Source: Dehalococcoidia bacterium
Lineage (GTDB): Bacteria; Chloroflexota; Dehalococcoidia; Lucifugimonadales; VXLM01
Length of the DNA: 64,000 bases
NCBI GenBank assembly: GCA_963662435.1
Contig: OY759598.1
Coordinates: forward strand, 712,507 to 776,506
Reading direction: 5' to 3'
In this document: positions 3,365 to 53,295 of the stretch, piece by piece
How positions within the stretch are numbered: position 1 is the stretch's first letter
Layout of the letters: each line of letters starts with the position of its first letter
Notes under the pieces: model-generated
Databases searched by the model: none
What the model was told of the DNA's origin: nothing
What the model saw: the letters and a program-made list of their open reading frames with translations, nothing else
Translations under genes and position numbers: made by a program

Positions 3365-3660
3365 GATGTAATCCCTTTCGAGGGATTACATCGAGAGGCC
3401 CACTGTAATGCAATGGGGGCGTACAGGGAATCACGTTTTGAGACAAGTTGTACTTCAGGGCCGATGCGAACCTGAAACAGGGTGAAATCACCCTCCTACA
3501 GGACGTAAGCGGGGAACACCTTTTGTCAGGGGCCGGTTGCGGCCGGCTGGTACATCAGTCGTAGCTGAGAGTGTCCATGTTGTACCACCCGGACAAGGGT
3601 CTGGTGTGTACATGAACCGTAGCTGAGGGTGTACATGTTGTACACAGGGAGACGGGACGG
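3365..3660 (+). repeat. Structured leader, copy D, of the HTH/coiled-coil gene family
   Basis: Perfect 12-bp stem with TTCG loop (GATGTAATCCCT ttcg AGGGATTACATC, 3365-3392). Shares CTACAGGACG..GAACAC(C)TTTTGTCAGGGGCCGGTTGC with the leaders at 24.1, 48.6 and 50.9 kb. Two 38-39-nt direct repeats (3550-3588, 3608-3645) lie just upstream of the ATG. Confidence 0.6.
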
Positions 3661-4509
3661 ATGACGTTGGACGAAACGATCACTCAAGACAGCGGCAACA
3701 CTGAGGAGTTGCACCATGACCGGCTCATGGCGCTCCTTCACGACCTCGTGCGGAATCATGGCGGTCGCAGGGGTGCCGCGAGGGTGCTCGGGGTCGACCG
3801 CCGGACCGTTGCAGCGTGCATGGGCGGTAAGGGTATGGCCTGGCGGATTCGTGAGGCGTTGGAACGGGCGTTTCAGGAGGGAGTGGGTTCTGCTGCGGAG
3901 CGGGAGCGAAGGCGCAACGAGGACCTCGAACGGCGTGTGGAGCAGTTGGAGGGATGGAGGGAGGCTTTGATGGAGGAGACTGGCCATGGTCTCGAATCCG
4001 TCGCGGGCGAGGTGGATGCTCTGCGGGAGGAGTATACTCGGAAGTTTGGCCAAGTGGAGCAACGACTGGCACGGGTGGAGGCGCAGCGGGGGTTCAACAA
4101 CGAAGTGGAGGACCCTGACCAAGCAGGAGCGCCGGCGGTAAGAGCCACTGAACCGCGGCGGTACCCCGACGTCGTGACGAAGGATCCTGCGCCGGATGAT
4201 GAAGAGGTCTTTGGTGCGGCGTGGCCGCTCATCGACGAGTGGCGTGGGCTGCGGGAAGGGCATCCCAACCAGGGCAAGAGTCTCTCGTGGCTGGCGACCG
4301 AGGAGCGCATCCGCGAGCTGGAGGTCGCCATGCTGGAGGATCACGGGCTCACTCTGCCCCCTGAGACGGAGCCGCTGCGAGGCCTCGACCGGAGCTCCCA
4401 GCTGAACTGGCGGAGGGAGACTCTCTGGGAAGTTCGTGCCGCGCGGGCCGGAAGGGAACTGCTGCGTTCGGTGGGAGAGGTCCTCACCCTGGGACTGTGG
4501 CGGAGGTAG
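3661..4509 (+). CDS. HTH plus coiled-coil protein, repeat family member (copy D, 282 aa)
   Basis: ATG start. LMALLHDLVRNHGGRRGAARVLGVDRRTVAACMGGKGMAWRIREALERAF is HTH-like, followed by a coiled coil. C-terminus ..ELEVAMLEDHGLTLPPETEPL..VLTLGLWRR. Paralogs at 51229-52098 and 53060-53295, with more distant ones at 24472, 25185, 48931 and 49643. Confidence 0.7.
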   Translation: MTLDETITQDSGNTEELHHDRLMALLHDLVRNHGGRRGAARVLGVDRRTVAACMGGKGMAWRIREALERAFQEGVGSAAERERRRNEDLERRVEQLEGWREALMEETGHGLESVAGEVDALREEYTRKFGQVEQRLARVEAQRGFNNEVEDPDQAGAPAVRATEPRRYPDVVTKDPAPDDEEVFGAAWPLIDEWRGLREGHPNQGKSLSWLATEERIRELEVAMLEDHGLTLPPETEPLRGLDRSSQLNWRRETLWEVRAARAGRELLRSVGEVLTLGLWRR

Positions 4510-5096
4510 TCTTTCAGGGCGCACGAGCGCTTAGGGTATTCAGAACACTTCGGGCAGGGGTCTGGACATCAGCACTGTTGTTCGTCAACAATGGAAACAG
4601 TTTCAGGCTTTTCCAGCGTTTCCTGCCCTAGAAACCTGGAGGATTCGAGTCCCTGAATCCGGGACCGGTTGCACAGGATCGAGCACTGCGCTCTCCGAAC
4701 AGCCGCCCAAGGGGTCCTGATCGGAAGGATTGAGCATAGCTCTCCCGACGGTCTCCCCGGTGGGACTTTTTGTAAATGGTTGGAGCCGCTTACACGCTTC
4801 AACCCTACGGACACTCAGGTCGGAGTGCTGCCCGCACCCTGACCTGTCCACTCATGTCTGCGGCGCAACCGTCACGCGGTTGGGTCGCAGCTTCGACACG
4901 CGCCGGTCTGCGATAAACGCTTCGCAGGCTGGCCGCTTCACGTCTCGCAGTTTTCCCCACTGACCTTTTGTTCACCCTGGGCCGAGCTGCGTCTTCTTCA
5001 CCCGGTCTCCCGTGTCATCGCGTCGTTGACGGGTCGGGTGCGTGTTTGGAACGGAATCGCGGAGTCAGGCTGATGAGAAAAGGAGGTAACGGCTGT

Positions 5097-5609
5097 ATGG
5101 ACGAAACAGGGACACAGGCATCGGAAGGAGGTACGGACATGGCGGAACGGTACATCGGACCCAGTGCGAGGCGGATCGCAGACCTGCTGCCCCATCGCGT
5201 GAGCTTCGAGCGGGATTGGTTCTGGACCACGACGGCGATCTGCCACGGCGGCAAGTCTGACGCGTTGGCATTTAGGCAGCGACCGGACGGCGAGGGAATT
5301 GACGTTCGGTGCCGCACCGGCTGCTCCCCTGGACTGATCATTACTGAGTTGGAGGTGCTGATCGGTCAGCCCATCTGGGCTGCCTACGAGTCAGTGGGCG
5401 ACGAGGCGGTCAAGGCCCCCGTCACGCGACAGTGGTGGACGAGAAAGCGGTTCGTCGTGGCCGGGGTTGTCGCCCTGGTCGTCGCGGCGCCGCTGTTGCT
5501 CGGCCTGGGGCTGGAGACTACGGTCCTCAACCTCGTCGGGCTGGGCATCGTGGCTTTGCTGCTTCGACGGTTCCTCGTGGGCCGCGCGTTGCGGAAGCTC
5601 CGACGCTGA
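5097..5609 (+). CDS. Small protein with a primase-like Cys/His zinc motif and a C-terminal transmembrane segment
   Basis: AAGGAGG 8 nt upstream of ATG 5097. Motif CHGGKSDALAFRQRPDGEGIDVRCRTGC. Hydrophobic stretch VVAGVVALVVAAPLLLGLGL... Confidence 0.55.
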   Translation: MDETGTQASEGGTDMAERYIGPSARRIADLLPHRVSFERDWFWTTTAICHGGKSDALAFRQRPDGEGIDVRCRTGCSPGLIITELEVLIGQPIWAAYESVGDEAVKAPVTRQWWTRKRFVVAGVVALVVAAPLLLGLGLETTVLNLVGLGIVALLLRRFLVGRALRKLRR

Positions 5610-5650
5610 CGGCACGGGCTCAAGCACTTCGCAACTCACTTCACTCGTAC

Positions 5651-5688
5651 AAGGGTCGTCTCCATCCGGGGGCGGCCCTTCTTCTTTG
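5651..5688 (+). terminator. Rho-independent terminator candidate
   Basis: AAGGGTCG (5651-5658) pairs with CGGCCCTT (5673-5680, one G-U), followed by CTTCTTTG; lies 40 nt after the stop at 5609. Confidence 0.45.
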
Positions 5689-5746
5689 CTCGCACGCGGG
5701 CGCACGGACTCAAGGAAACGAATCACAGGCACTAAGGAGGTGCACG

Positions 5747-6235
5747 ATGACGACGGCGACACTGGTGGCTCACGGACAGACGATGGATACGGCGGTAGTG
5801 CGGCAGAGGCATAGCCTCGAGGAGCTGGTGGACCAGCTCTTCTCAGCGATGGGGTTCGAGGACGAGACGGAAGTGGAGATAGTGGAGAAGGTCGAGACGA
5901 CCCCGACGCGCTCGATCCACGAGGCCCGGCGGCTCAGACAGGCGGGGGACGTCGACGGAGCTCTGGCTGTCCTCGCCGAAGTGGACACGGCGGGAGCGGA
6001 GACGAAGCTGGCGCGGTGGGCCTTCGCCGAGTGGAGGCAGCTGGTGAAGCGGCTGTTCGACGGCCGGGGCCCGATGGTCTACAGCCAGGGCACGGGCCGT
6101 GCTGCAGCGCTGGTGCCCACCGCAGACGACGGGACGCTGGAGGTCGTCGCGGTCCTGGGGATGCGCTGGCGGCCCGGCAAGACCGTGTCAGAGCGCAGCC
6201 TCCGGGGGTTGAGGCCCCTGACCGGGGGTGCGTGA
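5747..6235 (+). CDS. Hypothetical protein (162 aa)
   Basis: AAGGAGG upstream of ATG 5747. Its stop overlaps the primase start (TGATG at 6233-6237). I recognised no motif. Confidence 0.55.
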   Translation: MTTATLVAHGQTMDTAVVRQRHSLEELVDQLFSAMGFEDETEVEIVEKVETTPTRSIHEARRLRQAGDVDGALAVLAEVDTAGAETKLARWAFAEWRQLVKRLFDGRGPMVYSQGTGRAAALVPTADDGTLEVVAVLGMRWRPGKTVSERSLRGLRPLTGGA

Positions 6236-6457
6236 TGGTCGCGGGCAACACGACGGTTGACATCCCCGCTCTGAAGGCGCGGCACCCGCTCGCTGAAGTG
6301 GTGGAGTCTGCCGGAGTGAAACTGCGAGGGAGAGGCAGGGTCCGCCAGGGCTTCTGTCCATTCCACGACGAGGCGGAGGGCAGCTTCACGGTGTACGGAG
6401 ACTCGGAGCGGTTCTACTGCTTCGGTTGTGGTGCCGGAGGCGACGTGCTGGACTTCA
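6235..6457 (+). CDS. DNA primase, exon 1 (CHC2 zinc finger)
   Basis: CPFHDEAEGSFTVYGDSERFYCFGCGAGGDVLDF. Homology ends exactly at the GTGCG that begins at 6458. Confidence 0.8.
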
Positions 6458-6969
6458 GTGCGCCGCGTAACACGGCATAGGATACCCGACTCAATCGGGA
6501 AGAACTCGGAGAAAGTTCTTGGGCCAACCGACCTACCTCAAGGCGAAAGCTAAGGGGGAAAACAGCATGTCGGTAAAGCGGCTACAGTCCCAAAGCGTTG
6601 TAGGACTGGTTCCGCAAGGCCCGCGCGATACGGTGAAAGCTAAACTGCCTCAACCCCAGCCCCCAGACGGTGACTCAGCACACCCGCCGGTAGAACGCTT
6701 GTAACCCGGCGCCACTCATTGCCCTGGTCTGATGAAGTTACCAATGCAACTCCGATGAGTGAACGATGGCCAATGCGGTCATTCAAGGGGACGAACGGGG
6801 CACCTACAGTCGCGCTAGATACGTCCTATGTCGAAGGAACGCGGGATGGCCTACGGGGGGAGACCCCTATGGTCACGGAGTCCTCGTAGTAGTCCGAGCC
6901 GGGGAAAGCCCGGCACATGGCGAAGGAGGACAGGTGTCAACGACGAACAAACACAGAGAGGTATGCAGA

Positions 6970-8742
6970 ATGCAACAAGCCGAAACTGTACTGAACGTCA
7001 TACGCGAACGCGGAGAACGAGGATTGCCGCTGGAGAACATCTATCGGCTGCTTTACAACCGGAACCTTTACCTGCGGGCCTACGGACGTATCTACTCAAA
7101 CCAGGGGGCTACGACCAAGGGAGTCACCGCAGAGACCGTGGACGGTATGTCACTGGCGAAAATCGACCGCATCATCGAAGCCTTGCGCTACGAGCGGTTC
7201 AGGTGGACGCCGGTGCGACGGGTCAACATTCCCAAGCCTAACGGCAAGACCCGCGCCCTGGGCCTACCGACGTGGACGGACAAGCTGCTGCAAGAGGTCA
7301 TTCGGATGATTCTGGAAGCCTACTACGAGCCGCAGTTCTCCGACCGCTCCCACGGCTTTCGGCCCGGTCGGGGGTGCCACACCGCCTTGGGCAACGTGAC
7401 CACCCACTGGACCGGTGTCCGCTGGTTCGTCGAGGGAGACATCAAAGGGTGCTTTGACAACATCGACCACGATGTCCTGTTGTCGGTGCTCGGCGAGAAG
7501 CTCCACGACAACCGATTCCTACGCCTGCTCAAGTACCTACTGAAGGCGGGCTACGTCGAGGATTGGAAGTATGGCCGCACGCTGAGCGGTACACCGCAAG
7601 GCGGCATCGTCAGCCCCATCCTCTCCAACGTTTACCTAGACCGGTTGGACAAGTACGTCGAGAACATGCTCATACCAGCCCACACCGATGGCTCAGACCG
7701 GAGAGACAACCGCGAGTACACACGTTTGCTGAAACAGGCGGCTTACCAGAGGAAACGGGGGAACCACGCCAAGGCACTGCAACTGCGCAAGCAAATGCAA
7801 CAACTGCCGTCACGCGACCCCTACGACCCTAGTTACCGCCGACTGCGGTACGTGCGCTACGCGGACGACTTCGTGCTGGGTTTCATCGGGCCAAAGGCCG
7901 AAGCCGAGCAGATAAAGGAGTCCTTGGAAACATTCCTGCGCGACTCACTCAAGCTGGAGCTATCCAGGGAGAAAACTCTCATAACCCACGCCACCAGCCA
8001 GGCGGCGCGGTTCCTCGGCTACGAACTTGTAAACCAGCAGGCCCACGACCAGTTCGACCAACGGGGTCGGCGCAAGGTCAATGGCCGCATTGGACTACGA
8101 GTTCCCGCCAAAGTCATCGAACAACACTGCCAAGCCTACATGAAAAACGGCAAACCGATTCACCGCAGCATGCTGATCCACGACGAGGACTACTCCATTG
8201 TGGAACAGTATCAGTCGGAGTTCCGGGGAGTCGTCGAGTACTACAAGCTCGCCATGAACGTCTCCCATTTCGGGAGACTGCAATGGATCATGGAGTGGTC
8301 GCTCGCCAAGACCCTTGCGGCCAAACACAAGACCACGTGCCGGAAGGTGTTTCGGAGCTACAAGAGCTCCGTCCCAACCGACCACGGGCCACGTAAATGC
8401 CTCAAGGTCATCAAGGAGCAGGGCAATGGGAAACCCCCAAAGGTGACGCAGTTCGGTGGCATACCCCTGAAGCGGAATCGGCAGGCAGTCCTCGTAGACC
8501 AGCAGCCTCAGCGGTACAGGACTGACCGCAACGAGCTTATCAAACGGCTCCTAGCGGACAAATGCGAGATGTGCGACTCAACGGTGAAGGTAGAAGTTCA
8601 CCACATCCGCGCACTTCGCGACCTGAACGTGAAAGGCCAACGGGAAAAGCCCAAGTGGGTTCAAATCATGGCGGCGCGAAAACGCAAGACCCTCGCGGTC
8701 TGCCGGACGTGTCACATGGACATCCACCACGGGCGAAAGTAA
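6970..8742 (+). CDS. Group II intron reverse transcriptase/maturase with a C-terminal HNH endonuclease
   Basis: Motifs: MQQAETVLNVIRERG..RLLYNRNLYLRAY..TAETVDGMS..IPKPNGKTRALGLPTWTDKLLQE..SHGFRPGRGCHTAL..YVRYADDFVLGF (YADD), then CEMCDS..VHHIRAL..CRTCHMDIHHG (HNH). Confidence 0.9.
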   Translation: MQQAETVLNVIRERGERGLPLENIYRLLYNRNLYLRAYGRIYSNQGATTKGVTAETVDGMSLAKIDRIIEALRYERFRWTPVRRVNIPKPNGKTRALGLPTWTDKLLQEVIRMILEAYYEPQFSDRSHGFRPGRGCHTALGNVTTHWTGVRWFVEGDIKGCFDNIDHDVLLSVLGEKLHDNRFLRLLKYLLKAGYVEDWKYGRTLSGTPQGGIVSPILSNVYLDRLDKYVENMLIPAHTDGSDRRDNREYTRLLKQAAYQRKRGNHAKALQLRKQMQQLPSRDPYDPSYRRLRYVRYADDFVLGFIGPKAEAEQIKESLETFLRDSLKLELSREKTLITHATSQAARFLGYELVNQQAHDQFDQRGRRKVNGRIGLRVPAKVIEQHCQAYMKNGKPIHRSMLIHDEDYSIVEQYQSEFRGVVEYYKLAMNVSHFGRLQWIMEWSLAKTLAAKHKTTCRKVFRSYKSSVPTDHGPRKCLKVIKEQGNGKPPKVTQFGGIPLKRNRQAVLVDQQPQRYRTDRNELIKRLLADKCEMCDSTVKVEVHHIRALRDLNVKGQREKPKWVQIMAARKRKTLAVCRTCHMDIHHGRK

Positions 8743-8856
8743 TCCGCGCAAGCAAAAGTAGGTAGTGTCAGACCCCAAACAATTGAATACGGCCCTTACG
8801 AAGCAATTCCTCAACCTGATAAACTAGCCAGCCATCATGACTGGAGGTTGAGGCCG

Positions 8857-9231
8857 ATGCCCAGAGTGACCGTGCTGACTCTCGTCTCCCTCCTGACCAT
8901 TGCATGTGGTCAGGTCTCTAATCCTTCAGCCCTAGACTTCACGGAACGCACGGCCGAATACGAGGCCCTAGTTGAAGACTTCAACGACCATTGGCGTCTA
9001 GAAAGCAGGATGTGGGCGAGATGGACAACTGCGCACATCGATAGGGATTTCCGCATCCCCGAGACGTGCAAAGAAACTCTGGCGCAGGCGCAAGAGCGAC
9101 ATACGGTATTGAACGACGCCATGCTTTTAGCCAGCCTCGACGGAAACAGGCGTGAAGCCTATGACCTGTTGGGGAAGAAGATCGCCCAGCTAAAGGAACT
9201 TGACGGTGACCTGAAACAAGGCTGCCGCTAG
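8857..9231 (+). CDS. Lipoprotein-like small protein encoded inside intron domain IV, downstream of the RT ORF
   Basis: GGAGG (8840-8844) precedes ATG 8857. Signal/lipobox-like MPRVTVLTLVSLLTIAC-GQ. Local GC is lower than in the flanking intron. Lies between the RT stop (8742) and domain V (9361). Confidence 0.5.
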   Translation: MPRVTVLTLVSLLTIACGQVSNPSALDFTERTAEYEALVEDFNDHWRLESRMWARWTTAHIDRDFRIPETCKETLAQAQERHTVLNDAMLLASLDGNRREAYDLLGKKIAQLKELDGDLKQGCR

Positions 9232-9360
9232 GAACAGTCGACACCGACCTCTTGTGCATCCTCACGCAACCGCATCACTAGAAATGCACTGCGCATCATA
9301 ACACGTGGTGCCCTTAGGGTACCGCGCCTACCTGACGACACTACCCACACCGACACTAGA

Positions 9361-9394
9361 GAGCCGGATGCGGTGAAAGCCGCACGTCCGGTTC
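9361..9394 (+). ncRNA. Group II intron domain V
   Basis: GAGCCGGATGCGGTGAAAGCCGCACGTCCGGTTC matches the canonical 34-nt domain V hairpin (AGC triad, GAAA-type loop, 2-nt bulge). Confidence 0.85.
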
Positions 9395-9457
9395 GGAGGG
9401 GGGCCGACGGAAAAGTGCCCTGAACGCTCAGGGTAACTCGCCGGCGGCCTACCCTAC

Positions 9458-10278
9458 CCCAGCGGGTCGAGGGTCTCACGCTGCCGGAGGCGATCCGGCG
9501 ACTAGAGAGCCAGAGGCCCGTTTCCGTAGCCACTCCGGTCTCGGTGGGTCATCCAGAGGTGGCGCCGCTTCCTCCCAGGGACCCGGCGTTGCTCACAGCT
9601 GCGGCGCGATTCTACGCCGGTCAGCTGCGGCGCAGTCCAACAGCGCAGGCGTACCTTGCCTCGCGGGGCATCGGGCTTGACTCCGCAGCCCGCCTGGGCC
9701 TTGGCTACTCGCCGGGCTTCGGGCTGTGGCAGGCTCTCGAGTCGGCTGGCTTCCCCGGGAAGCGCATCCGGGACTCGGGGTTGTTCATGGAGCGGGGAAC
9801 AGAGCGCTTCGCCGGGATGGTGATCGCTCCCGAGGTCTCCGGTGGGCTTGTCCGCTGGCTCGTGGGCCGGGCCATCGATCCAGACCGGACTCCCCGGTTC
9901 CAGGCGCTGCCCGGTCCCAAGCCGGTGCTTGGGCTTGGTCGTCTCGGCCCCGCGCCACCTCTTGCGGTCGTTGCCGAGGGCGTCTTCGACTGGCTTGCCC
10001 TTGCTTGCTGGGGCATACCCGCGGTCTCTGCCCTTGGTACCCAGGGGGTCGAGCGGATCGCGGGGGTCCTGCGGGGCACGCCCCGCGTCTTCCTTGCCTT
10101 CGACAACGACGCCGCTGGCCTTGAGGCCGCCGGGCGGCTTGCTGGCTTGCTTGGGCGCAGGGCCGCTGCTGTCACACTCCCCGATGGCGTCGGTGACGTG
10201 GCCGAACTTGCTTGCCTTCCCCAGGGCTACTCGCTCTTCCTCCGGCTGCTTGCACGGGCCGCCCGCGCCGCCCGGTAG
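9458..10278 (+). CDS. DNA primase, exon 2 (linker plus TOPRIM domain)
   Basis: In-frame continuation (A)CC CAG.. = T-QRVEGLTLPEAIRRLES, then LLTAAARFYAGQL..YLASRGI. TOPRIM motifs VVAEGVFDWLAL and FLAFDNDAAGLEAA. Confidence 0.8.
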
Positions 10279-10525
10279 GCTCCCGCCACTCCCCCTTCCA
10301 CTTTCCCTTTACTTGGCCTTCCCGGCCCACCCACTCCCTTGCTTAGGGAGTTCGCTCCGCTTCATCCCCATACCACTCTCACCACCCGGAGCTTGCCCCC
10401 GACTCCGATCGGGGGAGGACCCATGCCCATTTCACGACGGGCCTCGCCCGCACACGGCTTCCCTTAGAGGGAACCCGCATCGCTCATTCGCTACAGGAAC
10501 ACCGACACAAGGAAGGAGAATCGAG

Positions 10526-11392
10526 ATGTTCAACAGAAACGGACACAACAACGGAAACGGCGCCCACAACGGCGCTGCGGTCGCCTCGCGCAACGGCAAC
10601 GGGCACAGGCCCGACGCCGCCCCCGCACCGAGTGCGGGGCAGGCTATCCCTGCGGAGCACGAGCTCGTCTGGGACGGGCTGTCGCCCGCCGTCACCCAGG
10701 CGCTCGGGCAGCCCATCGACCCCTCGCTGGTCTCCCACCGCAAGGGGCGCGGCGGCAGGACCTTCGACTACCTCGAAGGTCACGCCGTCATCGACCAGGC
10801 CAACCGCATCTTCGGATTCGGCGGATGGGGGTACGAGCTGGTAGGCGACGTGACGCTGCGCCAGGTCGAGACGGTCGATCCCCAGACCGGCGAGGTGGAG
10901 GTCTCGCTCGGCTACAGCGCCCCGGTCCGGGTCACGGTGGCGGGCGCGCTACCCCGCACGGACACCGGCGTCCACCCCGTGGCCGAGGACACCGTCGACG
11001 GTCACGACACAGCCATCAAGGGGGCAGTCACAGACGGCATGAAACGGGCCTTCAGGAGCTTCGGGGTCCAGTTCGGCAACGGCTTTTACGGCGACCAGAC
11101 GCAGGCGGTGCAGCCGGAGCGCGTGCCGGTGCAGTCCAACGGCAGGTCCGGTCAGGCCCAGCCCGGGAACGGGCCGCAGGCGCAGTCCCGGGACGAGGCG
11201 CAGGCGGACAAGCTACGCAAGCGCCTCATCGAGATCGCCGTCGAGCAGGGTCTCAACGAAGAGCAGGTGGGGACTGCCGTGGTCAACCGGACGGGCAAGA
11301 GCATCGACGACCTGACGGTCGCCGAGCTCGGGCCGCTGGTCGAGGCCGCCGCCGCCAAGCTGCGGCAGATGCAGCAGGCCGAGGCTGCATAG
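10526..11392 (+). CDS. Rad52/Rad22-family single-strand annealing protein
   Basis: GGAAGGAG upstream of ATG 10526. Motifs HRKGRGGRTFDYLEGHAVIDQANRIFGFGGWGYEL and TAIKGAVTDGMKRAFRSFGVQFGN. Confidence 0.7.
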   Translation: MFNRNGHNNGNGAHNGAAVASRNGNGHRPDAAPAPSAGQAIPAEHELVWDGLSPAVTQALGQPIDPSLVSHRKGRGGRTFDYLEGHAVIDQANRIFGFGGWGYELVGDVTLRQVETVDPQTGEVEVSLGYSAPVRVTVAGALPRTDTGVHPVAEDTVDGHDTAIKGAVTDGMKRAFRSFGVQFGNGFYGDQTQAVQPERVPVQSNGRSGQAQPGNGPQAQSRDEAQADKLRKRLIEIAVEQGLNEEQVGTAVVNRTGKSIDDLTVAELGPLVEAAAAKLRQMQQAEAA

Positions 11393-11486
11393 CCCTGCGG
11401 TCAACCGGAAGTTCGGCATCGAGCGGAGTGGTCTCCCGATGGGGTTGCCCCGCTCGCTCATTACAGGACAATCAAGGAGGTCTGAC

Positions 11487-11987
11487 ATGACGACCAACGT
11501 TACCTACACACCCTGGGGTTGGACCATGGACATTACGGAATTGGCCGAGGGCGTCTGGCGGGTCTCGACGCCCTCGCACGGCGGGCTGAAGCTCAGCTTG
11601 GAGCGGTGGGACGAGCTTCCCATCGAGCTGCGGGAGGCCATGTACACGCAGACCTTCGCCGAGGAGGACTGCGAGAAGCCCATCGTCAGGACGCTGCTGG
11701 GGCTGGGCGACGAACACGAGCGGGAGATGGCGCTGAAAGTGGCGGGCTACTTCGACCGCTACGCCCCGGCGCTCCCCCACCTCCGCGAATGCTCCCCGGC
11801 CATTCACTACCACGCCATCTTCTACTGGGGAGACTACGGGTCGGACCCCTTCGAGCGGTTCGACACCCGCGTCGAGGCCGAGTCCTTCCTGGGTGACCCG
11901 GAGATGGAGCGGGCCCACGGGCGGATGGAGGCCATTGAGTGCACCGGGACTCGCCCGGTCTGCGCGGGAAGGGGGGCCAGGCCATGA
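11487..11987 (+). CDS. Hypothetical protein (166 aa)
   Basis: AAGGAGG upstream of ATG 11487. Stop overlaps the next start (ATGA at 11984-11987). Confidence 0.55.
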   Translation: MTTNVTYTPWGWTMDITELAEGVWRVSTPSHGGLKLSLERWDELPIELREAMYTQTFAEEDCEKPIVRTLLGLGDEHEREMALKVAGYFDRYAPALPHLRECSPAIHYHAIFYWGDYGSDPFERFDTRVEAESFLGDPEMERAHGRMEAIECTGTRPVCAGRGARP

Positions 11988-12400
11988 CCGCGACGACGCG
12001 GACCAGGCCCCGCAGCCTGCCCAGCACGACGACCCGGCTGCAGACGGAGATGGGAAACCTTTTCGTCACGGTCTCCGTGGACGAGGACGGCGAGCCCTTC
12101 GAGGTCTTCGGGGCGCTCGGCAAGGGCGGCTCATTCCAGCACGGGGTGACCGAACTTGCGTGCCGTCTCATCTCGCTGCACATGCGCAGGGGCACACCCG
12201 TTGAGGAAATCGTCGACCAAATCCAGGGCATTCAAGAGATGGCGCCGTTCTGGAACCACCTGGGCGACGGCAGAAGCGTGCCCATCCACGGCCTGGGCGA
12301 CGGCATCGCCCACATTCTCAAGGCCCTCCTGAAGGCGAAGCAGGAGAGGGAAGCACAGGCCGAGACCGAGCAGGAAACTGAGGTGAAGGCGGCAGCGTGA
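11984..12400 (+). CDS. TSCPD-like domain protein (similar to the class II ribonucleotide reductase C-terminal domain)
   Basis: GNLFVTVSVDEDGEPFEVFGALGKGGSFQHGVTELACRLISLHMRRGTPVEEIVDQIQGI. The eponymous TSCPD Cys motif is replaced by HGLGDGIAHIL. Confidence 0.55.
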   Translation: MTATTRTRPRSLPSTTTRLQTEMGNLFVTVSVDEDGEPFEVFGALGKGGSFQHGVTELACRLISLHMRRGTPVEEIVDQIQGIQEMAPFWNHLGDGRSVPIHGLGDGIAHILKALLKAKQEREAQAETEQETEVKAAA

Positions 12401-12445
12401 GCGGCCCCTTCTCTCACCTACAGGACAACAAGGAGGTGAACGACG

Positions 12446-13543
12446 ATGGTAACCACGGTTTATGACAGGGCGGGGGTCTTCTCCCGCCCTGCGGCGCAGA
12501 TCAACGAGGACGGCGAACTGGTGGTGCGGGCCTCTTCCGCCTTGGGCTGCCGCCGCGCGCTCTGGTACGCCGCCACCGGCTACGAGCCGACCAACCCCCC
12601 CGGCGACGACTCGCTGACGGCTATGGAGGCTGGCAACGCCCTGGAGCCGGTGGTGGTGCGGGCGATGGAGCGGGCTGGCTGGAAGGTCGACGCCCCCGAC
12701 CCGCAGGACCCGCACCAGGTGGCGGTGGAGGTGGGCCCTAACCTGCTGGTGACCGGGCACCCCGACGGTACGATCCGGATGCCGGTGGAGGAGGGCGACG
12801 CGGCCCCGCCGCAGATGTTCCTCTTCGAGGGGGAACAGGACGGACCCGTCTTCGGCGACGAGATGGTTGTCGAGATCAAGACGCGTGGCCCGGAGGCGTT
12901 CCGCCGCTGGCGGACGCTGGGGGCCGAGCGCAGCCACCCGGCGTCGGTGGCGCAGGCCGCCTTCTACACCCTCGGAGAGTTCGGGGATTTGCGGGACGTG
13001 GTGATAGCCACGATGGACACGGGCAGCCGCATCTGGGACTGGGAGCGGATACCCGCCGACCGGCTGGAGCGGGCCCTGCAGGACGCCTGCGAATGGCTCG
13101 GCGAACTAGGGGCCCACCACGTAGAAAACGGGGCAGACCCCGACGCGCTGCCGGAGCGTGACTTCACGGCCAACTCATGGCAGTGCCGGTCGTGCCCGTT
13201 CCTGGCAGTCTGCCTGCCTGGCGCGGAGGAGGAGTGTGAAGAGACTGAGACCGAAGGAAAAGAGGTGACGGACGAGGAGGCGCAGGACGCGGTGGCGGCC
13301 TACGCCGAGGCCAAGGACGCGGTCAAGGAGCCCGAAAAGGCAAAGAGGACCGCACTCGACACCCTGAAGGCGTGGATGCGCCGCCAGGGCGATTCGAAGG
13401 CGACCATCAACGGTAAGACGGTCAGCCTCGTGCGGACGACACGATACTCGGTGAACCACCGGAAGCTCAACGAGGCGCTCGACCCTGAGACCAGGGCGGA
13501 GATCGTCACCGAGAGCGAGTCGGAGTACGTCCGGGTCAGCTAG
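12446..13543 (+). CDS. PD-(D/E)XK exonuclease, Cas4/RecB-like, with a four-Cys cluster
   Basis: AAGGAGG upstream. Motifs GHPDG....VVEIKTRG, with an N-terminal Cys (LGCRRALWY) plus CRSCPFLAVC. Sits in a recombination module with the annealase and SSB. Confidence 0.65.
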   Translation: MVTTVYDRAGVFSRPAAQINEDGELVVRASSALGCRRALWYAATGYEPTNPPGDDSLTAMEAGNALEPVVVRAMERAGWKVDAPDPQDPHQVAVEVGPNLLVTGHPDGTIRMPVEEGDAAPPQMFLFEGEQDGPVFGDEMVVEIKTRGPEAFRRWRTLGAERSHPASVAQAAFYTLGEFGDLRDVVIATMDTGSRIWDWERIPADRLERALQDACEWLGELGAHHVENGADPDALPERDFTANSWQCRSCPFLAVCLPGAEEECEETETEGKEVTDEEAQDAVAAYAEAKDAVKEPEKAKRTALDTLKAWMRRQGDSKATINGKTVSLVRTTRYSVNHRKLNEALDPETRAEIVTESESEYVRVS

Positions 13544-13662
13544 ACGCTCTCTCACGGGAGCGGAGAACGGGGCCGTCATCCCCTCTAAAGGCGACGGCCC
13601 CGCCTTCAATCAAGAAGGGCGTGCAAGGAACGCGCCGCATCCACCAAGGAGGATACAGAACT

Positions 13663-14031
13663 ATGGCACGCACGATCAACAAGGTAGAACTGTTGGGCAG
13701 GGTCGGGACCGACCCAGAGATGACCTACACGCAGGGCGGCACCGCCGTCACCAAGCTGCGGCTGGCGACCGACCGCTACCGCAGGGACGCGGAGCCCGAG
13801 ACCGACTGGCATAACGTCGTGGTATGGAATGGGACCGCCGAGGCGGTGAACCAGTACGTCGCCAAGGGCCAGCGCATCTATGTGGCCGGACGCCTCGTCC
13901 AGAACAACTGGGAGGGAGACGACGGCCAGCGCCGTCACCGCACTGAGATCCACGCCTCCGAGGTCGTGTTCCTCGACGGCGGGAATGGCAGCGGGAATGT
14001 CGGGCAGGCGGAGGACGCCTCCCCCTTCTAA
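13663..14031 (+). CDS. ssb: Single-stranded DNA-binding protein
   Basis: MARTINKVELLGRVGTDPEMTYTQGGTAVTKLRLAT..WHNVVVWNGTAEAVNQYVAKGQRIYVAGRL..., with an acidic tail ending DASPF. Confidence 0.85.
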   Translation: MARTINKVELLGRVGTDPEMTYTQGGTAVTKLRLATDRYRRDAEPETDWHNVVVWNGTAEAVNQYVAKGQRIYVAGRLVQNNWEGDDGQRRHRTEIHASEVVFLDGGNGSGNVGQAEDASPF

Positions 14032-14152
14032 CCCGCTGGACGGACAACGGAAACCGACGCTCGCCACAACTGGGCGCAAAGACCACGGGGCCGCTCCCAC
14101 TTTACATGAGGCGGCCCTGCTCCTGTTCTAACCGATAACGAAGGAGGCCGAC

Positions 14153-14713
14153 ATGACCCGGAAGAAGAAAGGCGCCAACAACCAGAAAGAAGTCCTTGAG
14201 GGCAACCCTACCCCTGCGCCGGGGCTGGAGGGGCAGGCAATTCTCGATGCCCTGCGCAGCAACCTGAACCTGCTTGGAGAGCTGGCGGTGCGCTACGAGG
14301 TGGCAACCAGGCCAGAGGGCCCGGAGGATCCACCTTCCATCGGCTCCCCCCGCGATGTCCACAGCCTGCTGGGGCCGGAGATGTCCCAGCTGGCCCAGGA
14401 GCAGCTGCGAGTCCTGCTGCTGAACACCAAGAACGAGGTGGTCGGCCAGCGGGTCGTCTACCAGGGAAACATAAGCTCGTCGATGGTTCGCGCGGCGGAG
14501 GTGCTGAGGCCCGCCGTCATAGAGGCGGTCCCCGCGGTCATCATCAGTCACAACCACCCGTCCGGCGACCCCGACCCCAGCCCCAACGACGTGACGATCA
14601 CCCGCAAGCTCAAGCAGGCGGCGGACTTGCTGGACATTGACCTGCTCGACCACATCGTCATCGGCGGGAAACGGCACGTCAGCCTCAAGGACCGGGGGCT
14701 GATGGCCGGATAG
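14153..14713 (+). CDS. radC: RadC-like JAB-domain protein
   Basis: LRVLLLNTKNEVVGQRVVYQGNISSSMVRAAEVLRPAV..AVIISHNHPSGDPDPSPNDVTITRKL..DHIVIG. Confidence 0.8.
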   Translation: MTRKKKGANNQKEVLEGNPTPAPGLEGQAILDALRSNLNLLGELAVRYEVATRPEGPEDPPSIGSPRDVHSLLGPEMSQLAQEQLRVLLLNTKNEVVGQRVVYQGNISSSMVRAAEVLRPAVIEAVPAVIISHNHPSGDPDPSPNDVTITRKLKQAADLLDIDLLDHIVIGGKRHVSLKDRGLMAG

Positions 14714-14766
14714 AGCCAGTCCCACCCCGCAGGTCGAACGAAAACCAAGAGAAGAGAGAAGAAGAA

Positions 14767-15084
14767 ATGACAGACAAAGACATTCGGAACGCGCCCATCA
14801 AGTGGAAGGTCATTGGGGCCGGGTTCGTAATGCAAGGCGGGTTCGTCGCCCTTGTGGACAGGGACCCGGACCCGTTCCCCTGCACCGTCTTCGACGGCAC
14901 GGAGGAGGAGAGGGAGACCCACGAGAGGATGTGCAGGGAGACCTGGGCCACCGTGTGGGAGCTGGAGGGAGACACGCTCGAAGAGGCCAGGCAGTCCCTG
15001 GCGGAGCGCCGCTTTAGCGGGTCCGCATACCACGTGAACGACTGCGAGCTTCTGGACGACCGGCCGCAGGCGGACACGCCCTAG
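14767..15084 (+). CDS. Hypothetical protein (105 aa)
   Basis: ATG start, codon usage like its neighbours, no motif recognised. Confidence 0.45.
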   Translation: MTDKDIRNAPIKWKVIGAGFVMQGGFVALVDRDPDPFPCTVFDGTEEERETHERMCRETWATVWELEGDTLEEARQSLAERRFSGSAYHVNDCELLDDRPQADTP

Positions 15085-15180
15085 CGCAAGAGCATCACAT
15101 CGACCCCTTCCGGGGCTTCACGACGGGGACACCCTCCCCCGCTTGCATCATCCATACCAAGGAATGAAAGGAGACTGCCC

Positions 15181-16255: not shown

Positions 16256-16278
16256 AAGCGGCGGAAAGGAGACGGAAC

Positions 16279-17582: not shown

Positions 17583-17643
17583 ACGGCTCAACCGAAGAGC
17601 CGCGGACATGACACCCACATACAAGGAAAGGAGAACAGAGACG

Positions 17644-17841: not shown

Positions 17842-18075
17842 ACGCCCCCCGCGGGGCCGCATTCCGAGGACCGCCACGTGCGGCCTCGCCGATTCAATCA
17901 AGCGCCTGAGGACGCTTCCAAGACCCACATTCACAAGCGTCCTCTTCTCTCCCTCGGGGTGAGATGGGCGCAGTGCGTCTCCCGTCAAACCCGCCCTGCG
18001 GCGGCGACCAGGGAGAACATGCACCGGGGTCTCGGCGTCGTCCTCCGGCCACCAGGGAACAGGAGGACGACAGAA

Positions 18076-48543: not shown

Positions 48544-48590
48544 GTCGTACCCATGTGCTGATGCCAGTGTGAGAGGTGGGAGAGCGGAGC

Positions 48591-48930
48591 ATAATCCCTC
48601 GGAAGGGACTACACGGGCGTAGTGACTTTGAGGGGACTACACCGGTGTAGTCACCTGCAGGGGATTACGACCGACGGTCTGATCTGATGTCATGGTTCGA
48701 CGAGGCGGCCCAGCTTGGCCCAGCGTTTGTGCATCGAATGGCTGTCAAGGGGCTGTACAGGGAAATGGAACTTCGGGTAGAAGCGGACTTCCTGGACCAT
48801 TTAGCTTCGGTAAGTTGCAGGTTGCACGGTGTGGAGGCCCCGAAAGCGAACACTTTTTGTCAGGGGCTGGTTGCAGGGCAAAGGGCCTCAAGTGTGCAAG
48901 GCTGGGCCGCCCCCAATTGGAGGTGTTGAG
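48591..48930 (+). repeat. Structured leader, copy B (near-identical to copy A)
   Basis: Same hairpin series. The palindrome is GGGGACTACACCGGTGTAGTCACC at 48632-48655 (one arm mutated). Confidence 0.65.
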
Positions 48931-49642: not shown

Positions 49643-50386
49643 ATGAAACGGAAGAGGTCAGACATTGAAGGCAGCATAGCTGTTGAAAACACACACGAAC
49701 GGCAGCTCATGACGCTGCTGCAAGAGATGGTGCAGGAGAAGGGCCGTGGTGGCGCGGCGCGGGTGCTGGAGATCGACCCCCGCACGGTGGCCGCGTGCAT
49801 GAAGAAAGGGAGGCTGTCCTGGCGGGTGAGGGAGACGTTGGAGAGGGCAATTCAGTATGGGGCGGGCTCTGCCGCCGCCGAACAGCGGGAGCGCAACGAC
49901 CAGCTGGAGGACCGAATCAACAGATTGGAGGAGAAACTTCAAACCGGCATCGAAGAACTGGGGGCAGACCTCAGGGGACGTCAGAGGAAACTTGCCCGGG
50001 ACCTTCATCTGGTCGAAGCGCGAGTGGCGATCCTGACGCAAGGCCTTGAGAGTTCGGGGACGGGAACTCCCACAGACGATGAGAGTGGAGTTCCCCCGCC
50101 GACGAGACGTGGTCCACTCTGGTTGCTCAAGGGGCCCGGCCCGGTCGACATGACAGACCTGGTCTTCAAGTGGCGGCAGGCGCTGGCCGAGTACCTGGCC
50201 GCCGAGGAGCGGCTGTGCGAGGGCATGGACAAGAGCATGATGGCGATCCTTCGTGACGACAAGAGGGCTGAAGCTCCCGTCGAGCCTCGCGCCCCCAGAG
50301 CGGCTCTGCGGTCGACCCTACGGTCGAAGCGGAAGGGTGGTGTTCGTTCATGGACTGCCGAGAGCGCTCAGACGGGGAAGGGGTAA
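49643..50386 (+). CDS. HTH plus coiled-coil protein, copy B (247 aa)
   Basis: GGAGGTGG upstream of ATG 49643. High identity by eye to 25185-25925. Confidence 0.6.
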   Translation: MKRKRSDIEGSIAVENTHERQLMTLLQEMVQEKGRGGAARVLEIDPRTVAACMKKGRLSWRVRETLERAIQYGAGSAAAEQRERNDQLEDRINRLEEKLQTGIEELGADLRGRQRKLARDLHLVEARVAILTQGLESSGTGTPTDDESGVPPPTRRGPLWLLKGPGPVDMTDLVFKWRQALAEYLAAEERLCEGMDKSMMAILRDDKRAEAPVEPRAPRAALRSTLRSKRKGGVRSWTAESAQTGKG

Positions 50387-50399
50387 CCGCGAAGTTGAC

Positions 50400-50588
50400 G
50401 ATGCACCGCCGGATGAGCCAGTACGCGGCAGTCATGGCGGCGTTCACAGACCGGGCAGCTGACTCTCTGGCCGCGTCGATGATCTTCGACACGTCTCCGT
50501 AGACGGCTTGGTACGGGGCGTCTTGACTGAGAACTAAACGCCTCAGCGATGGCTGGTTACGGTTAGAAGGCGTCTCGGACCGCATCAA
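50400..50588 (-). pseudogene. DUF1016/YhcG remnant (first ~62 codons)
   Basis: MRSETPSNRNQPS..LSQDAPYQAVYGDVSKIIDAARESAARSVNAAMTAAYWLIRR compared with the 23012 start. Homology stops about 15 nt from the stop of the convergent gene. Confidence 0.7.
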
Positions 50589-50811
50589 GCTTCCGCCTCC
50601 GGGTGGCCGTCGACCCGACGGTCGTCCTGGGGGACTCCTTCTCCGACTCGACCTGGTGCTCCCTGGCTGAGTGTCCCAGCAGGATCGTGAAGAGGCGGCG
50701 CAGTCTGTCCTCCGCGTCGGGGGCGGGTTTGGAGATGACCCTGACCTTCCCGAACTCGGAGAAGTCCTTTTCGGGCGTCCGTTGCCCGTTCTGCCTGCTT
50801 TTATCGTTCAT
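50563..50811 (-). CDS. Small conserved protein, copy C
   Basis: MNDKSRQNGQRTPEKDFSEFGKVRVISKPAPDAEDRLRRLFTILLG. Confidence 0.5.
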   Translation of the reverse strand: MNDKSRQNGQRTPEKDFSEFGKVRVISKPAPDAEDRLRRLFTILLGHSAREHQVESEKESPRTTVGSTATRRRKLDAVRDAF

Positions 50812-50900
50812 CGCTTTCTTCGACGGACTCGCGTGAGCCCGCATCGGGCCGTCATCGTAGGTGTGTCTGCCGTCGAGTGTGGAGGGTCGGGAAGCCGAGT

Positions 50901-51228
50901 GTTATCCCCTGGAAGGGACTACTTGGGCGTAGTGGCTTTGGGGGGACTACAGCGATGAAGTCTCTTCCGAGGGATTACAGAGTGTCCAGCCGCCGTGATG
51001 TCATGGGGCTGTACAGAGAAACGAGTCTGGTTGCAAGTTGCAGGTCGGGTGGGTTTCAAAGCTGGAACAGGGGGGAGTCGCCCCTTACAGGACGTGAATC
51101 GCGAACACTTTGTGTTAGGGGCCGGTTGCCACGGAATACGCATTGCTCACGTTTGAAATCTGCAAGCTGCAAGCGCTCGAAATCGAGGAAAAGCAGCAAA
51201 GGTCTGCAAGTTGCAGGAGGAGGCGCCG
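50901..51228 (+). repeat. Structured leader, copy C
   Basis: ATCCCC tgga AGGGA hairpin; GGGATTACA; GCTGTACAGAGAAACG; three TGCAAG(T/C)TGCA(G/A)G motifs (about 51033, 51155, 51200); CTTACAGGACGTGAATCGCGAACACTTTGTGTTAGGGGCCGGTTGC. Confidence 0.6.
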
Positions 51229-52098
51229 ATGGAATCTAGCAAGACCGTAGTGACTGAAGGCGGAGGCGCCGAGGAGGAGTACGTCCTCCGGCTCAGGGCA
51301 CTGCTTCACGACCTGGTGCGAAAGAAGGGACGTTTCAAGGCAGCCAATGAGCTGGGGCTTGACCCCAGGACGGTCGGGGCGTGCATGGACGGCGAAGGGA
51401 TGTCGTGGCGGGTCCGAGAGGCGCTGGAGCGGGGACTCCAGGAGGGCGCGGGCTCTCCTGCCGCCCGCCAGCGGAAGCCCAACGATTACTTGGAGCTTCG
51501 CGTGGAGGAGCTGGAGAAGGAGCTTCGCGACGGCCTCAAGGCCGCCAAGGGCGAGATCGAGAAGCTGCGGGAGGACCAGGACCGCAGGTGGGAGTCGTTG
51601 GAGCGGCGGCTCGCACGCGGAGAGGCCAAGCAGGAGAACCCCCAGGAGGCTCCCAGTCCTGCTGACACTCCCAGCGCAACAGGACCGACGCTAGAGGAGG
51701 CCCCGACTGTCACCAAGCCGTCGGCGAAGGACAGGTTCCCGAAGCGGCTGTACCCCGAACTGGTGACGAAGGAGCCTGCTCACGACGACGAGGAGGTCTA
51801 CGGCGAGGCGTGGCCCCTCATCGAGGAGTGGCGCAGGCTGCGGGAGGGCCATGCCAGCGACGGCAAGGGCCTGTCGTGGCTTCGCACCGAAGAGCGCGTC
51901 CGGGAACTGGAGGTTGCCATGCTGGAACGACACGGGCTGACTTTGCCGCCGGAGACGGAGCCGCTGGGTGGCCTCGACCGGAGTTCCCAGCTGAACTGGC
52001 GGAAGGAGACCCTCAACGAAGTTCGGGTGACACGGGCCAGACGGGAGTTACTGTGTTCGGTGCGGCAGGTCCTGACCCTGGGACTGTGGAGGAAGTAG
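51229..52098 (+). CDS. HTH plus coiled-coil protein, copy C (289 aa; ortholog-like to 3661-4509)
   Basis: GGAGGAGG upstream of ATG 51229. LRALLHDLVRKKGRFKAANELGLDPRTVGACMDGEGMSWRVREALERGLQEG ... ELEVAMLERHGLTLPPETEPLGGLDRSSQLNWRKETL..VLTLGLWRK. Confidence 0.65.
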   Translation: MESSKTVVTEGGGAEEEYVLRLRALLHDLVRKKGRFKAANELGLDPRTVGACMDGEGMSWRVREALERGLQEGAGSPAARQRKPNDYLELRVEELEKELRDGLKAAKGEIEKLREDQDRRWESLERRLARGEAKQENPQEAPSPADTPSATGPTLEEAPTVTKPSAKDRFPKRLYPELVTKEPAHDDEEVYGEAWPLIEEWRRLREGHASDGKGLSWLRTEERVRELEVAMLERHGLTLPPETEPLGGLDRSSQLNWRKETLNEVRVTRARRELLCSVRQVLTLGLWRK

Positions 52099-53059
52099 GC
52101 GCTTCGGGTTTCGTCGAACTGTTCAGAAAACTTAGGGCCGAGGTTTGGGCAGTCGTACGGTTGTTCGGTAAGGATAGAGTCAGGCGCAGGCTTTTCCAGC
52201 GGTTCCCGTCCAAGATACCTGAGGGGACCCATTCCAGGCCCGAGAACGGTCGCGTAAGATCGACGCTGTTTTCCGAGCGGTCGGCCCAACTGGGATAAGT
52301 GCCTCCCCGCTGCGTGACGTGGCCGATGGATTGAGCCCTGTTCTCCCGAACCACCATTGAAAGTCGGGACATTTTCGCAGCGGTTGTAGAGCCTATCCCG
52401 CATTGGCCTCTCGAACGCCCCCGCATATAGTGCGGGGCAGGTTCTGGTCAGGGTGCGCCCTTCCCGCCGGTGGATTACTCACGTCTGAGCGGTTTCTCCC
52501 AGGACCTCTTGACCAACATCGTCCCGCATTCAACCCAGTATCGAGTCCTGCCATCGCCTCTGATAAGAAACCGCCGATGACTCTTCCGGTTCCTCTCCTC
52601 GATTGCCGCGCAATCTCCCTATCTCTTTATGGCTGTCGTAGACTCGCAACGCCGAAGCTTCCGCAACTGGCCGGATAAGGACAGCAGTGGGGTTTGAAAG
52701 GCGTACCTTAAGTAGCGCCGAATAGGGCCTTCTCCAAGGCGAGCCTTATTCGACTTCATTACCGCGTATAGAGAATCGGACTTATTTCGGGGACGATCAA
52801 AATGACCGTAAGCGCGGTGGTACAGGCGTGCAAGCGCCCTCCCTACAGGACAATCACTGGCGCATTTACTTTAGTCTCCGTTCCAGGCCCATGATCCACG
52901 GCCAGCTACGAAACGTTCCAAATGGAACACCACATTTTCGAGGTCGCGGACATGGGGGCAGAGTCTATCCACGCGTGTGCAGGGGAACCGACGAAGCGCA
53001 CGCTTCCTTCCCGGCGGCTCGACTCGTAGCGGAGTCTGATGCTCGTGGCGTCGAGATCG

Positions 53060-53295
53060 GAGGCGGTGTCGAGCGAGCCGTGGCGAAGGAGCGTAGGTGG
53101 GAGCTTGAGACTGCCATGATCGGGGAGTTTGGACTCACGCTGCCGCCGCAGACTGAGCCGCTGAACGAGTCGAGGCGAGCCGATCCTCTCCAAAAGCTGC
53201 GTAGCTTGCTCAGAAAGGCGCACATGCGCCGTGTGAGGGCCAAATGGATTCGCATTTTGAGACGCTTGATGACACTTGGCTTGTGGTGGAAGTAG
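53060..53295 (+). pseudogene. C-terminal remnant of the same family
   Basis: ..ERRWELETAMIGEFGLTLPPQTEPLNESRR..LMTLGLWWK. No matching N-terminal part lies upstream. Confidence 0.55.

Follow-up and report, generated by a model that had tools for sequence, protein, structure and literature searches.

Cro/CI and Xre-type repressors, such as lambda and N15 Cro, ImmR of ICEBs1 and SetR of SXT, have a small helix-turn-helix (HTH) head of the Cro/Xre class, are encoded at the divergent control region of a mobile element, and have repeated palindromic sites in the DNA upstream of their own genes. PrgX of pCF10 and C proteins such as C.Esp1396I are also HTH regulators, with at least two spaced operators upstream of their own or a divergent promoter, and display cooperative binding or looping. 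Here we describe a module that appears comparable in a 64,000-nucleotide stretch of DNA from a Dehalococcoidia bacterium (assembly GCA_963662435.1, contig OY759598.1, positions 712,507 to 776,506 of the forward strand; hereafter the window, in which positions are counted from the first nucleotide). The module would comprise the gene for a putative DNA-binding protein, which occurs in three types (A, B and C), together with ~250-400 bp of control DNA upstream, i.e., the leader. Judging from its sequence and genomic context, it seems somewhat probable that this is an autoregulated master regulator with its operators, and that it serves as regulatory hub for a family of integrative elements in the Dehalococcoidia.

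The putative regulator genes and their protein family

In the window, which is GC-rich (54-68%), six paralogous open reading frames (ORFs), all on the + strand, are intact and homologous, as judged by translation and MAFFT alignment. They had been listed with the same coordinates in an initial annotation made from the sequence alone, and they do translate cleanly and align with one another. The two genes of type A are A1 (3661..4509, 282 amino acids [aa]) and A2 (51229..52098, 289 aa, with Hma-type defense genes downstream), which are 63% identical in the MAFFT alignment and 57% identical by tblastn. The A1 protein is predicted to consist of an HTH (residues 11-72), a coiled coil (residues 78-143), a disordered linker and a three-helix C-terminal domain, and ends in TLGLWRR. 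Type C is represented by C1 (24472..24981) and C2 (48931..49440), both of 169 aa; C1 has the HTH and coiled coil, followed by an acidic stretch and the tail RFGRLWRR. The type B paralogs are B1 (25185..25925, 246 aa), in which the HTH and coiled coil are followed by a degenerate C-terminal domain without the LWRR tail, and B2 (49643..50386), the lengths of the two being 246-247 aa.

When the window was searched with A1, B1 and C1 using tblastn, no seventh intact copy was found, so that the seven paralogs plus one remnant of the initial annotation become six plus one remnant. The remnant itself exists, although not in the frame at 53060 to which it had been assigned. It encodes 69 residues from the C-terminal end of a type A protein, ending in TLGLWWK, at 53080-53286 (+) within ORF 52828-53295, and it belongs to a decayed copy of the module (52764..53295, +) in which this C-terminal piece is preceded by a weak copy (52764-52886) of the conserved upstream core described below. 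As had been claimed, five sequences, i.e., A1, A2, C1, C2 and the remnant, are closed by the tail ..G(L/R)LW(R/W)(R/K); B1 and B2 are without it.

Homologs of A1 form more than 1,658 sequence clusters (at 90% identity) in public data. None of these clusters carries a Pfam domain, and the only name found among them is 'hypothetical protein'. A scan of one genome per species yielded 485 loci, 80 of which were fetched. All of these 80 come from metagenome-assembled genomes of Dehalococcoidia, SAR202 or Chloroflexota, and a genome often carries several copies. The A, B and C proteins had no match in Pfam at threshold, PHROGs, NCBIfam or PADLOC, a family profile gave only coiled-coil noise against sequences of the Protein Data Bank (PDB), and there was no match when A1 was compared by tblastn with collections of plasmid and phage records. 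Look-ups of the exact sequences P0001 and P0026, made for their genomic context, returned no record. That the protein family had not been recognized in the initial annotation is thus in line with the database searches. Type C proteins did give weak matches to Pfam Cro (E = 0.006-0.017; 15.5-16.9 bits versus a cut-off of 32.7), and types A and B had no HTH_3, Cro or CI-type match in Pfam.

An AlphaFold2 model of A1, built from 24 sequences (mean pLDDT 70.7), shows a four-helix N-terminal domain at residues 11-72 (pLDDT ~80) and a single long helix at residues 78-143, beyond which are a disordered linker and then a helical C-terminal domain (residues 180-281). Both the alignment and this model agree with the common HTH-like N-terminus and coiled coil that had been proposed. 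The top matches to the model in a Foldseek search of the PDB were N15 Cro, an Xre-family regulator, Xfaso Cro, C.Esp1396I and SinR; their target-normalized TM-scores were mostly 0.44-0.58, and all had E > 1, the query being the whole multi-domain protein. The C-terminal domain modeled alone was a three-helix bundle, and a search with this fold gave no significant match, HK97 small terminase appearing at a non-significant E = 3.1. Small terminases and Mor/C-type activators had been named in the initial annotation as families to which the proteins might turn out to belong, but neither gave a Pfam or PHROGs match or a significant fold match.

Conservation within the family is highest in the N-terminal domain, and most of the invariant residues lie in the HTH segment and the C-terminal domain. 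The predicted architecture is a Cro/Xre-like HTH, a long coiled coil and a three-helix C-terminal domain without a match. As far as sequence comparison goes, the C-terminal domain and its W/R-rich tail are new, and the family is not a member of any described one. A homology search for fusions, made with the C-terminal domain only, returned short stand-alone or truncated copies and none with a Pfam domain. ORFs of ~111 aa that represent the C-terminal domain alone recur in many metagenome contigs (P0128, P0137, P0216 and others); they represent either a genuine short version of the protein or truncated copies that are common.

The control region and its palindromes

The four leaders in the window are homologous, and both alignment and profile matches support the earlier observation that such a leader lies ahead of each gene or gene pair. 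Their conserved core was represented by a 148-position nucleotide profile. This core was present upstream of A in all 80 loci, always on the gene strand and 100-330 nt before the ATG. In the window, the profile gave seven matches, i.e., the four leaders plus 23443-23582, 23722-23861 and 52764-52886.

The A1 control region (3343..3660, +) contains a perfect 12-nt inverted repeat (3365-3392), the core (3399-3543) and a GAAC-N18-GTT element (~3514-3538), and is without the upstream repeat units of the other copies. In the A2 control region (50864..51228, +) there are GGGACTAC repeats and a core at 50989-51129. In the C1-B1 control region (24095..24471, +), the core (24282-24416) is divergent, and there is a TGCAGGTTGCA site at 24357-24367; the C2-B2 control region (48554..48930, +; core at 48741-48875) is 94-95% identical to this copy. 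Upstream of the core are lineage-specific palindromes of 20-24 bp and, in the window, three phased 28-nt GGGACTACA units, which in the C1-B1 copy lie together with palindromes at 24127-24210. The two weak core copies at 23443-23582 and 23722-23861 (+) are followed by no regulator gene and form a 279-nt tandem repeat; they sit inside ORF 23246-24064 (-), which is probably not a real gene. In L009 and L010 (8492-9896), a 1.26-kb insertion divides the leader core and carries a homolog of window ORF 26095-26493 (-), which lies just downstream of B1.

Several blocks of the core are invariant or nearly so, i.e., GTGTACAGG; AGCTGAAACAGGGG(N)AAATC(N)CCCCCTACAGGACGT; GTGAACACTT; and GTTCC. The core as a whole is not ultraconserved, because its nucleotide identity (0.68) equals that of coding sequence (0.67) and invariance is limited to the blocks. 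It was also rejected as a micro-protein gene, because no frame stays open across loci. The element GAAC-N18-GTT(C/G), which lies at 51103-51127 in the A2 leader, has a fixed 18-nt spacing in 58 of 66 cores. Promoters used by sigma factors of the extracytoplasmic function (ECF) type include GGAAT-N18-GTT, which it resembles, and by this analogy it looks like an alternative-sigma promoter.

Each leader contains three copies (O1-O3) of one palindrome, located at about -206, -74 and -27 from the ATG across loci, so that the spacings are ~130 bp and 44-58 bp. O3 adjoins the ribosome-binding site, and the centers of the palindromes are 1-4 nt, which is too short for the loops of RNA hairpins but normal for sites bound by protein dimers. 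In the A1 leader, O1 (3443..3453) is the right arm of a TGTACA-N3-TGTACA-type palindrome with a degenerate left arm, O2 (3572..3586) is TGTCCATGTTGTACC, and O3 (3630..3644), which lies a few bases ahead of the ribosome-binding site (~3647), is a perfect palindrome, TGTACATGTTGTACA. The sites at 3443, 3575 and 3633 have the form ACA(A/T)GTTGTAC, the last being the perfect one. In the A2 leader, operator-like palindromes of the form TGCAAG(T/C)TGCA occur at 51032-51044, 51161-51173 and 51205-51217, the last of which abuts the ribosome-binding site. The sequence TGCAAGYTGCA gave 10 strand-matches in the 64-kb window, versus 1.6 expected; nine of the ten were within leaders, and none of 100 shuffles reached 10.

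The type of palindrome changes with the type of HTH. Palindromes of the TGTACA-N3-TGTACA type accompany an HTH of the form ..LGIDRRTV.. (~22 loci, and A1 as ..LGVDRRTV..), and those of the TGCAA type (TGCAAGTTGCA) accompany the form ..ELGLDPRTV.. (L020, L022, L023 and A2). A third HTH variant is found with the TTGCA type (L051 and L052) and a fourth with the GTTCC type (L062 and L066). In the window, the B proteins carry the ..DPRTV.. form, and the C leaders carry the TGCAGGTTGCA site. Because the palindromes repeat and co-vary, they indicate a single lineage-specific DNA-binding factor that would read all three sites, and because the head of the adjacent HTH protein changes along with the sites, that protein is the obvious candidate for the reader.

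The element family and the proposed role of the module

In related loci, the A gene is the first gene of a conserved operon. After A come two unknown genes, a primase (CHC2 zinc finger plus Toprim), a Rad52-like protein, DUF7007 and TSCPD, and the operon continues with a Cas4/RecE-like nuclease, SSB, RadC, three unknown genes, a DUF6094 methylase and a SNF2-like helicase. The same order was seen in at least 20 related loci, and there is also a short variant in which the middle is replaced by a multi-HTH_3 protein. Directly upstream of A, on the other strand, type IV secretion genes were detected by tblastn in 63 of the 80 loci, with at least two such genes in 55. Pfam searches of the secretion operon identified TrbL/VirB6, a type IV secretion system pilin, a PrgI-like protein, a VirB4/TraC-type ATPase and a TrwB-type coupling protein, with L033 and L030 among the loci in which such genes were assigned. 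In a second set of loci, fetched via the coupling protein instead of A, an A-family gene was divergent from the secretion operon in five of the six loci with enough flanking DNA. Downstream of the coupling protein is a Replic_Relax protein (L094, L098 and L100), after which L098 has a large serine recombinase and then host genes. We take the Replic_Relax Pfam family to be the MOBC relaxases. The MOBC family is related to PD-(D/E)xK nucleases (PMC12857230).

The family is an integrative conjugative element, with A and its leader at the central divergent control region; most members are conjugative, and some are recombinase-linked without transfer genes. In the window, tblastn detected no type IV secretion genes, and a large serine recombinase is present without a relaxase. 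The position originally described for the module, at the head of a replication and DNA-processing operon and divergent from a recombinase or transfer operon, holds both for the window and for the related loci. The copies in the window are remnants or recombinase-linked versions, one of them with defense genes. Its multi-copy state reflects several related elements that have accreted and decayed side by side, rather than one multi-gene system, because remnants of the recombinase, of A and of two other element genes (sm and that for a YhcG nuclease, both described below) adjoin at 47.9-53.3 kb, and because decayed tandem copies occur elsewhere, e.g., in L007. Full-text literature searches yielded no description of this element family, with its Replic_Relax relaxase, type IV secretion operon and large serine recombinase in Dehalococcoidia, and nothing relevant on serine-recombinase or conjugative elements in Dehalococcoidia/SAR202.

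The initial annotation had suggested master regulators or, alternatively, excision or immunity factors. A role in excision or immunity is conceivable, but that of an element regulator is the reading best supported, by the predicted Cro/Xre-like HTH fold and by the upstream palindromes that change with the HTH residues. The protein would bind to O1-O3 as a dimer or higher oligomer; the long coiled coil would probably be the dimerization element, or might serve in higher-order assembly, and the ~130 bp between O1 and O2 could be looped. Binding would control the protein's own operon, i.e., replication and DNA processing, or cargo, and probably also the divergent operon, i.e., type IV secretion, relaxase and recombinase, so that the protein might switch the element on and off. 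Types B and C could compete for the same sites, because they retain the DNA-reading head and the coiled coil, with the C-terminal domain absent or altered.

Several findings weigh against such a regulator. The HTH falls below every Pfam gathering score, and the Foldseek matches to HTH proteins are not significant (E > 1). The co-variation of HTH and operator spans four or five lineages separated by descent, and could have its source in shared ancestry. In the largest lineage, with the HTH ..ELDQRTV.., there are short direct repeats rather than clear repeated palindromes. The boxes that are conserved in all lineages are unreadable by a lineage-specific head, and a second, conserved reader is needed, which might be the relaxase or an RNA polymerase carrying some sigma factor. 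The search for a sigma-70-type promoter in the leaders was negative, and the case for GAAC-N18-GTT as a promoter draws on its resemblance to those of the ECF type. Finally, autoregulation gives no role to the C-terminal domain and tail.

Alternatively, the upstream region, or its 5' part with the repeats and palindromes, might be an origin of transfer (oriT) common to conjugative elements and to secretion-less, recombinase-linked elements that hitch-hike on them; A would then be a relaxosome accessory or transfer-licensing factor, instead of or besides a regulator. We consider this unlikely. In a conjugative element, the region does separate the transfer operon from that for DNA processing, the relatives encode a Replic_Relax relaxase, and the secretion-less elements (those of the window and L081) keep both the region and the gene, as expected of mobilizable elements with the oriT of their helper. 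The 5' part of the leader also contains three phased 28-nt repeats beside long inverted repeats, and TraX of pAD1, the one MOBC relaxase that has been studied, binds to five direct repeats 70-120 bp from the nick site (PMC12857230). However, ~10 kb separate the region from the relaxase gene, which lies at the distal end of the transfer operon, the repeats and palindromes vary between lineages, and no recognizable nick site was found in the region. Most known relaxosome accessory proteins have a ribbon-helix-helix fold (PMC12857230), unlike that predicted for A, and the operator pattern by the ribosome-binding site is more simply explained by control of transcription.

An extended version of the transfer hypothesis has the same slim chance of being correct. 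The leader core and the 5' block would together be an oriT or another cis-acting site for DNA processing, and A would represent a new class of transfer-licensing factor, with the HTH head marking the site, a coiled coil, and the W/R-rich tail docking on the coupling protein or the membrane. Secretion-less, recombinase-linked elements with defense genes would have the same site and would parasitize conjugative ones, and the B and C paralogs of resident remnants would be exclusion or immunity factors.

It is quite improbable that the leader is a structured 5' untranslated region or a noncoding RNA, exerting control in cis like a riboswitch or acting in trans. The initial annotation had proposed a long structured leader of this kind, 'full of hairpins', and its orientation relative to the gene is indeed strictly conserved. 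In addition, a variable block (H1) has more stable folding on the plus strand (summed energies of -532 kcal/mol, versus -232 kcal/mol for the minus strand), with hairpins that are not positionally conserved, and in a possible 5' stem certain C-to-T changes would leave G-U pairs. However, when compared with dinucleotide shuffles, 14 whole leaders gave plus-strand folding z-scores of -1.2 to +2.0, and 14 cores gave z-scores of -1.0 to +2.2 with one outlier at -3.1, i.e., values around zero for both. With RNAalifold, the core (44 sequences) yielded two pairs and -0.35 kcal/mol, with no consensus structure, and H1 yielded no structure. A scan of column pairs revealed no helix of at least 4 bp that was conserved across the alignment.

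Among four candidate local hairpins, only one formed by a G-run and a C-run (H2) was more stable than its shuffles (z ~-2.8), and this was equally the case on both strands. Pair counting gave H2 a covariation score of 0.038, versus a mean of 0.053 for shuffled controls, i.e., no excess over the controls. The initial annotation had named two findings as contrary to its own proposal, leaders without covariation and a well-known protein family; the first was observed and the second was not. No leader matched Rfam, which identified only the group II intron in the whole window at the gathering score; there was no match to the A2 leader (50800-51260) at E = 1, and no terminator-like site was found in the leaders. 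The strong inverted repeats in the leaders are palindromes of the DNA type, with centers of 0-4 nt, and the occurrence of one palindrome three times per leader, with centers of 1-4 nt, fits protein binding to duplex DNA and not RNA hairpins. The leader shows no sign of being a structured RNA.

Finally, we regard as very improbable the idea that A, B, C or sm are recombination directionality (excision) factors for the large serine recombinase, with the palindromes as attachment or arm-type sites: although elements of the window type have the gene 3-4 kb from, and divergent to, the serine recombinase, the tandem decayed copies suggest repeated integration at one place, and the A1 control region without upstream repeat units looks as if broken at that point, most loci have secretion genes as neighbors with the recombinase more than 10 kb away, element genes continue on both sides so that the region is not the end of the element, no attL/attR pair was found, and the known directionality factors of serine integrases act on the integrase rather than via an HTH bound to DNA.

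Neighboring features and comparison with known systems

The arm of the element that begins with A1 runs through the helicase and the serine recombinase (3343-21424). The operon headed by A1 (4968..20031, +) has the gene order given above for the related loci, from two unknown genes, an intron-split primase and a Rad52-like gene to the DUF6094 methylase and the SNF2-like helicase. A group II intron splits the primase gene (6016-10278) into parts encoding the CHC2 zinc finger (6016-6480) and the Toprim domain (9544-10278); it has a reverse-transcriptase ORF (6766-8742) and a match to Rfam RF00029 (9359-9457). Related reverse-transcriptase genes also occur in L003, L027, L035, L066 and L069, inserted into other genes of the same element. 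The DNA at 1-3340, where the transfer operon lies in intact relatives, has no ORF with the signature of coding sequence of this genome in GC content at third codon positions, and is probably decayed.

Homology of the SNF2-like helicase (17878-20031) stops at residue ~648 of ~850, and at the same point in L003, L016 and L019. After the break comes the 3' end of the recombinase gene in the window, and a DUF772 transposase in L016; the break may mark a boundary between domains or a hot spot of recombination. We rejected the idea that the helicase gene is a recurrent insertion target with the leader palindrome as attachment site, because differing DNA follows the break and no attL/attR pair was found.

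Recombinase-linked units have the order recombinase, YhcG nuclease, sm and leader, followed by C-B or A. In the window, the large serine recombinase (19601..21424, -) belongs to the operon divergent from the C1-B1 control region, and the gene for a YhcG/DUF1016 PD-(D/E)xK nuclease (21774-23012, -) lies between it and sm. The latter is a small divergent gene encoding 93 aa with no family match, which is complete at 50563..50844 (-) and present as partial copies at 23060-23239 and 48307-48435. There are also remnants of the N-terminal part of the serine recombinase (47914-48126) and of YhcG (50280-50585, -). The order recombinase, YhcG, sm and leader was also found in L076, and in L020 without a detected match to sm. 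In L081, a recombinase-linked A without YhcG is followed by restriction-modification and Cas3 genes. The neighbor of the recombinase is Replic_Relax in the conjugative relatives L094, L098 and L100, and YhcG instead in secretion-less elements, where it might conceivably act as a relaxase-like enzyme.

The defense genes downstream of A2 encode an HmaC-like ATPase (53360-56419), a protein with HTH_3 and peptidase M78 domains (56886-58097), an HmaB-like methylase (59137-62028) and a PD-T4-4/AAA_15-like ATPase (61973-63613). Elsewhere in the window is a second, unrelated repeat family with four copies of 66-84% identity (30823-31086, 32520-32679, 34836-35099 and 36398-36661). Its copies extend over the starts of three ORFs that had no match in Pfam (30913-31737, 34881-36362 and 36488-37552). 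A segment of ~300 nt is duplicated with 84-94% identity at 28462-28759 and 32685-32984, and takes in the 5' end of a hybrid histidine kinase/response regulator gene (26658-28550, -). An IS66-family transposase gene is located at 42672-43964 (-).

An HTH regulator with its operators on a mobile element is an ordinary kind of system, and is not surprising in principle. The Dehalococcoidia, including SAR202 and sponge symbionts, are abundant, mostly uncultured and without genetic tools, and the module marks an element family that is widespread among them. The regulator gene and its 148-nt core form a compact, searchable signature by which such elements, their boundaries and their cargo, including defense systems, can be found. 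If the module is an autoregulated master regulator, then more than 1,600 clusters at present labeled 'hypothetical', or not labeled at all, become describable as putative master regulators; the variants of operator and HTH would be a natural specificity-swap series, and could supply orthogonal pairs of regulator and operator.

Like the structured leaders and riboswitches of Rfam, the leader has a fixed position and orientation before one gene family and contains conserved blocks; it differs from them in having no match, consensus structure, covariation or excess stability. Its 5' part is similar to the oriT of plasmids with a MOBC relaxase, represented by that of pAD1 with TraX, in combining inverted repeats with phased direct repeats (PMC12857230), but it lies far from the relaxase gene and its repeats are of 28 nt rather than short. 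With PrgX and the C proteins, the likeness is one of mechanism only, without sequence similarity, although C.Esp1396I was among the fold matches. The C-terminal domain of PrgX binds a peptide, and the C proteins lack such a domain; the operator spacings of ~130 and 44-58 bp are the Dehalococcoidia element's own. The Cro/CI and Xre-type repressors resemble the A family in the location of the gene at a divergent control region and in the repeated palindromes upstream, and may also share its predicted small HTH head, for which the Foldseek matches were weak. Unlike them, the A family gives no significant match to HTH_3, Cro or CI and has no adjoining gene for a partner protease, and in place of a CI-type or peptidase-type C-terminus it has a 65-residue coiled coil followed by the unmatched three-helix domain and its W/R-rich tail.

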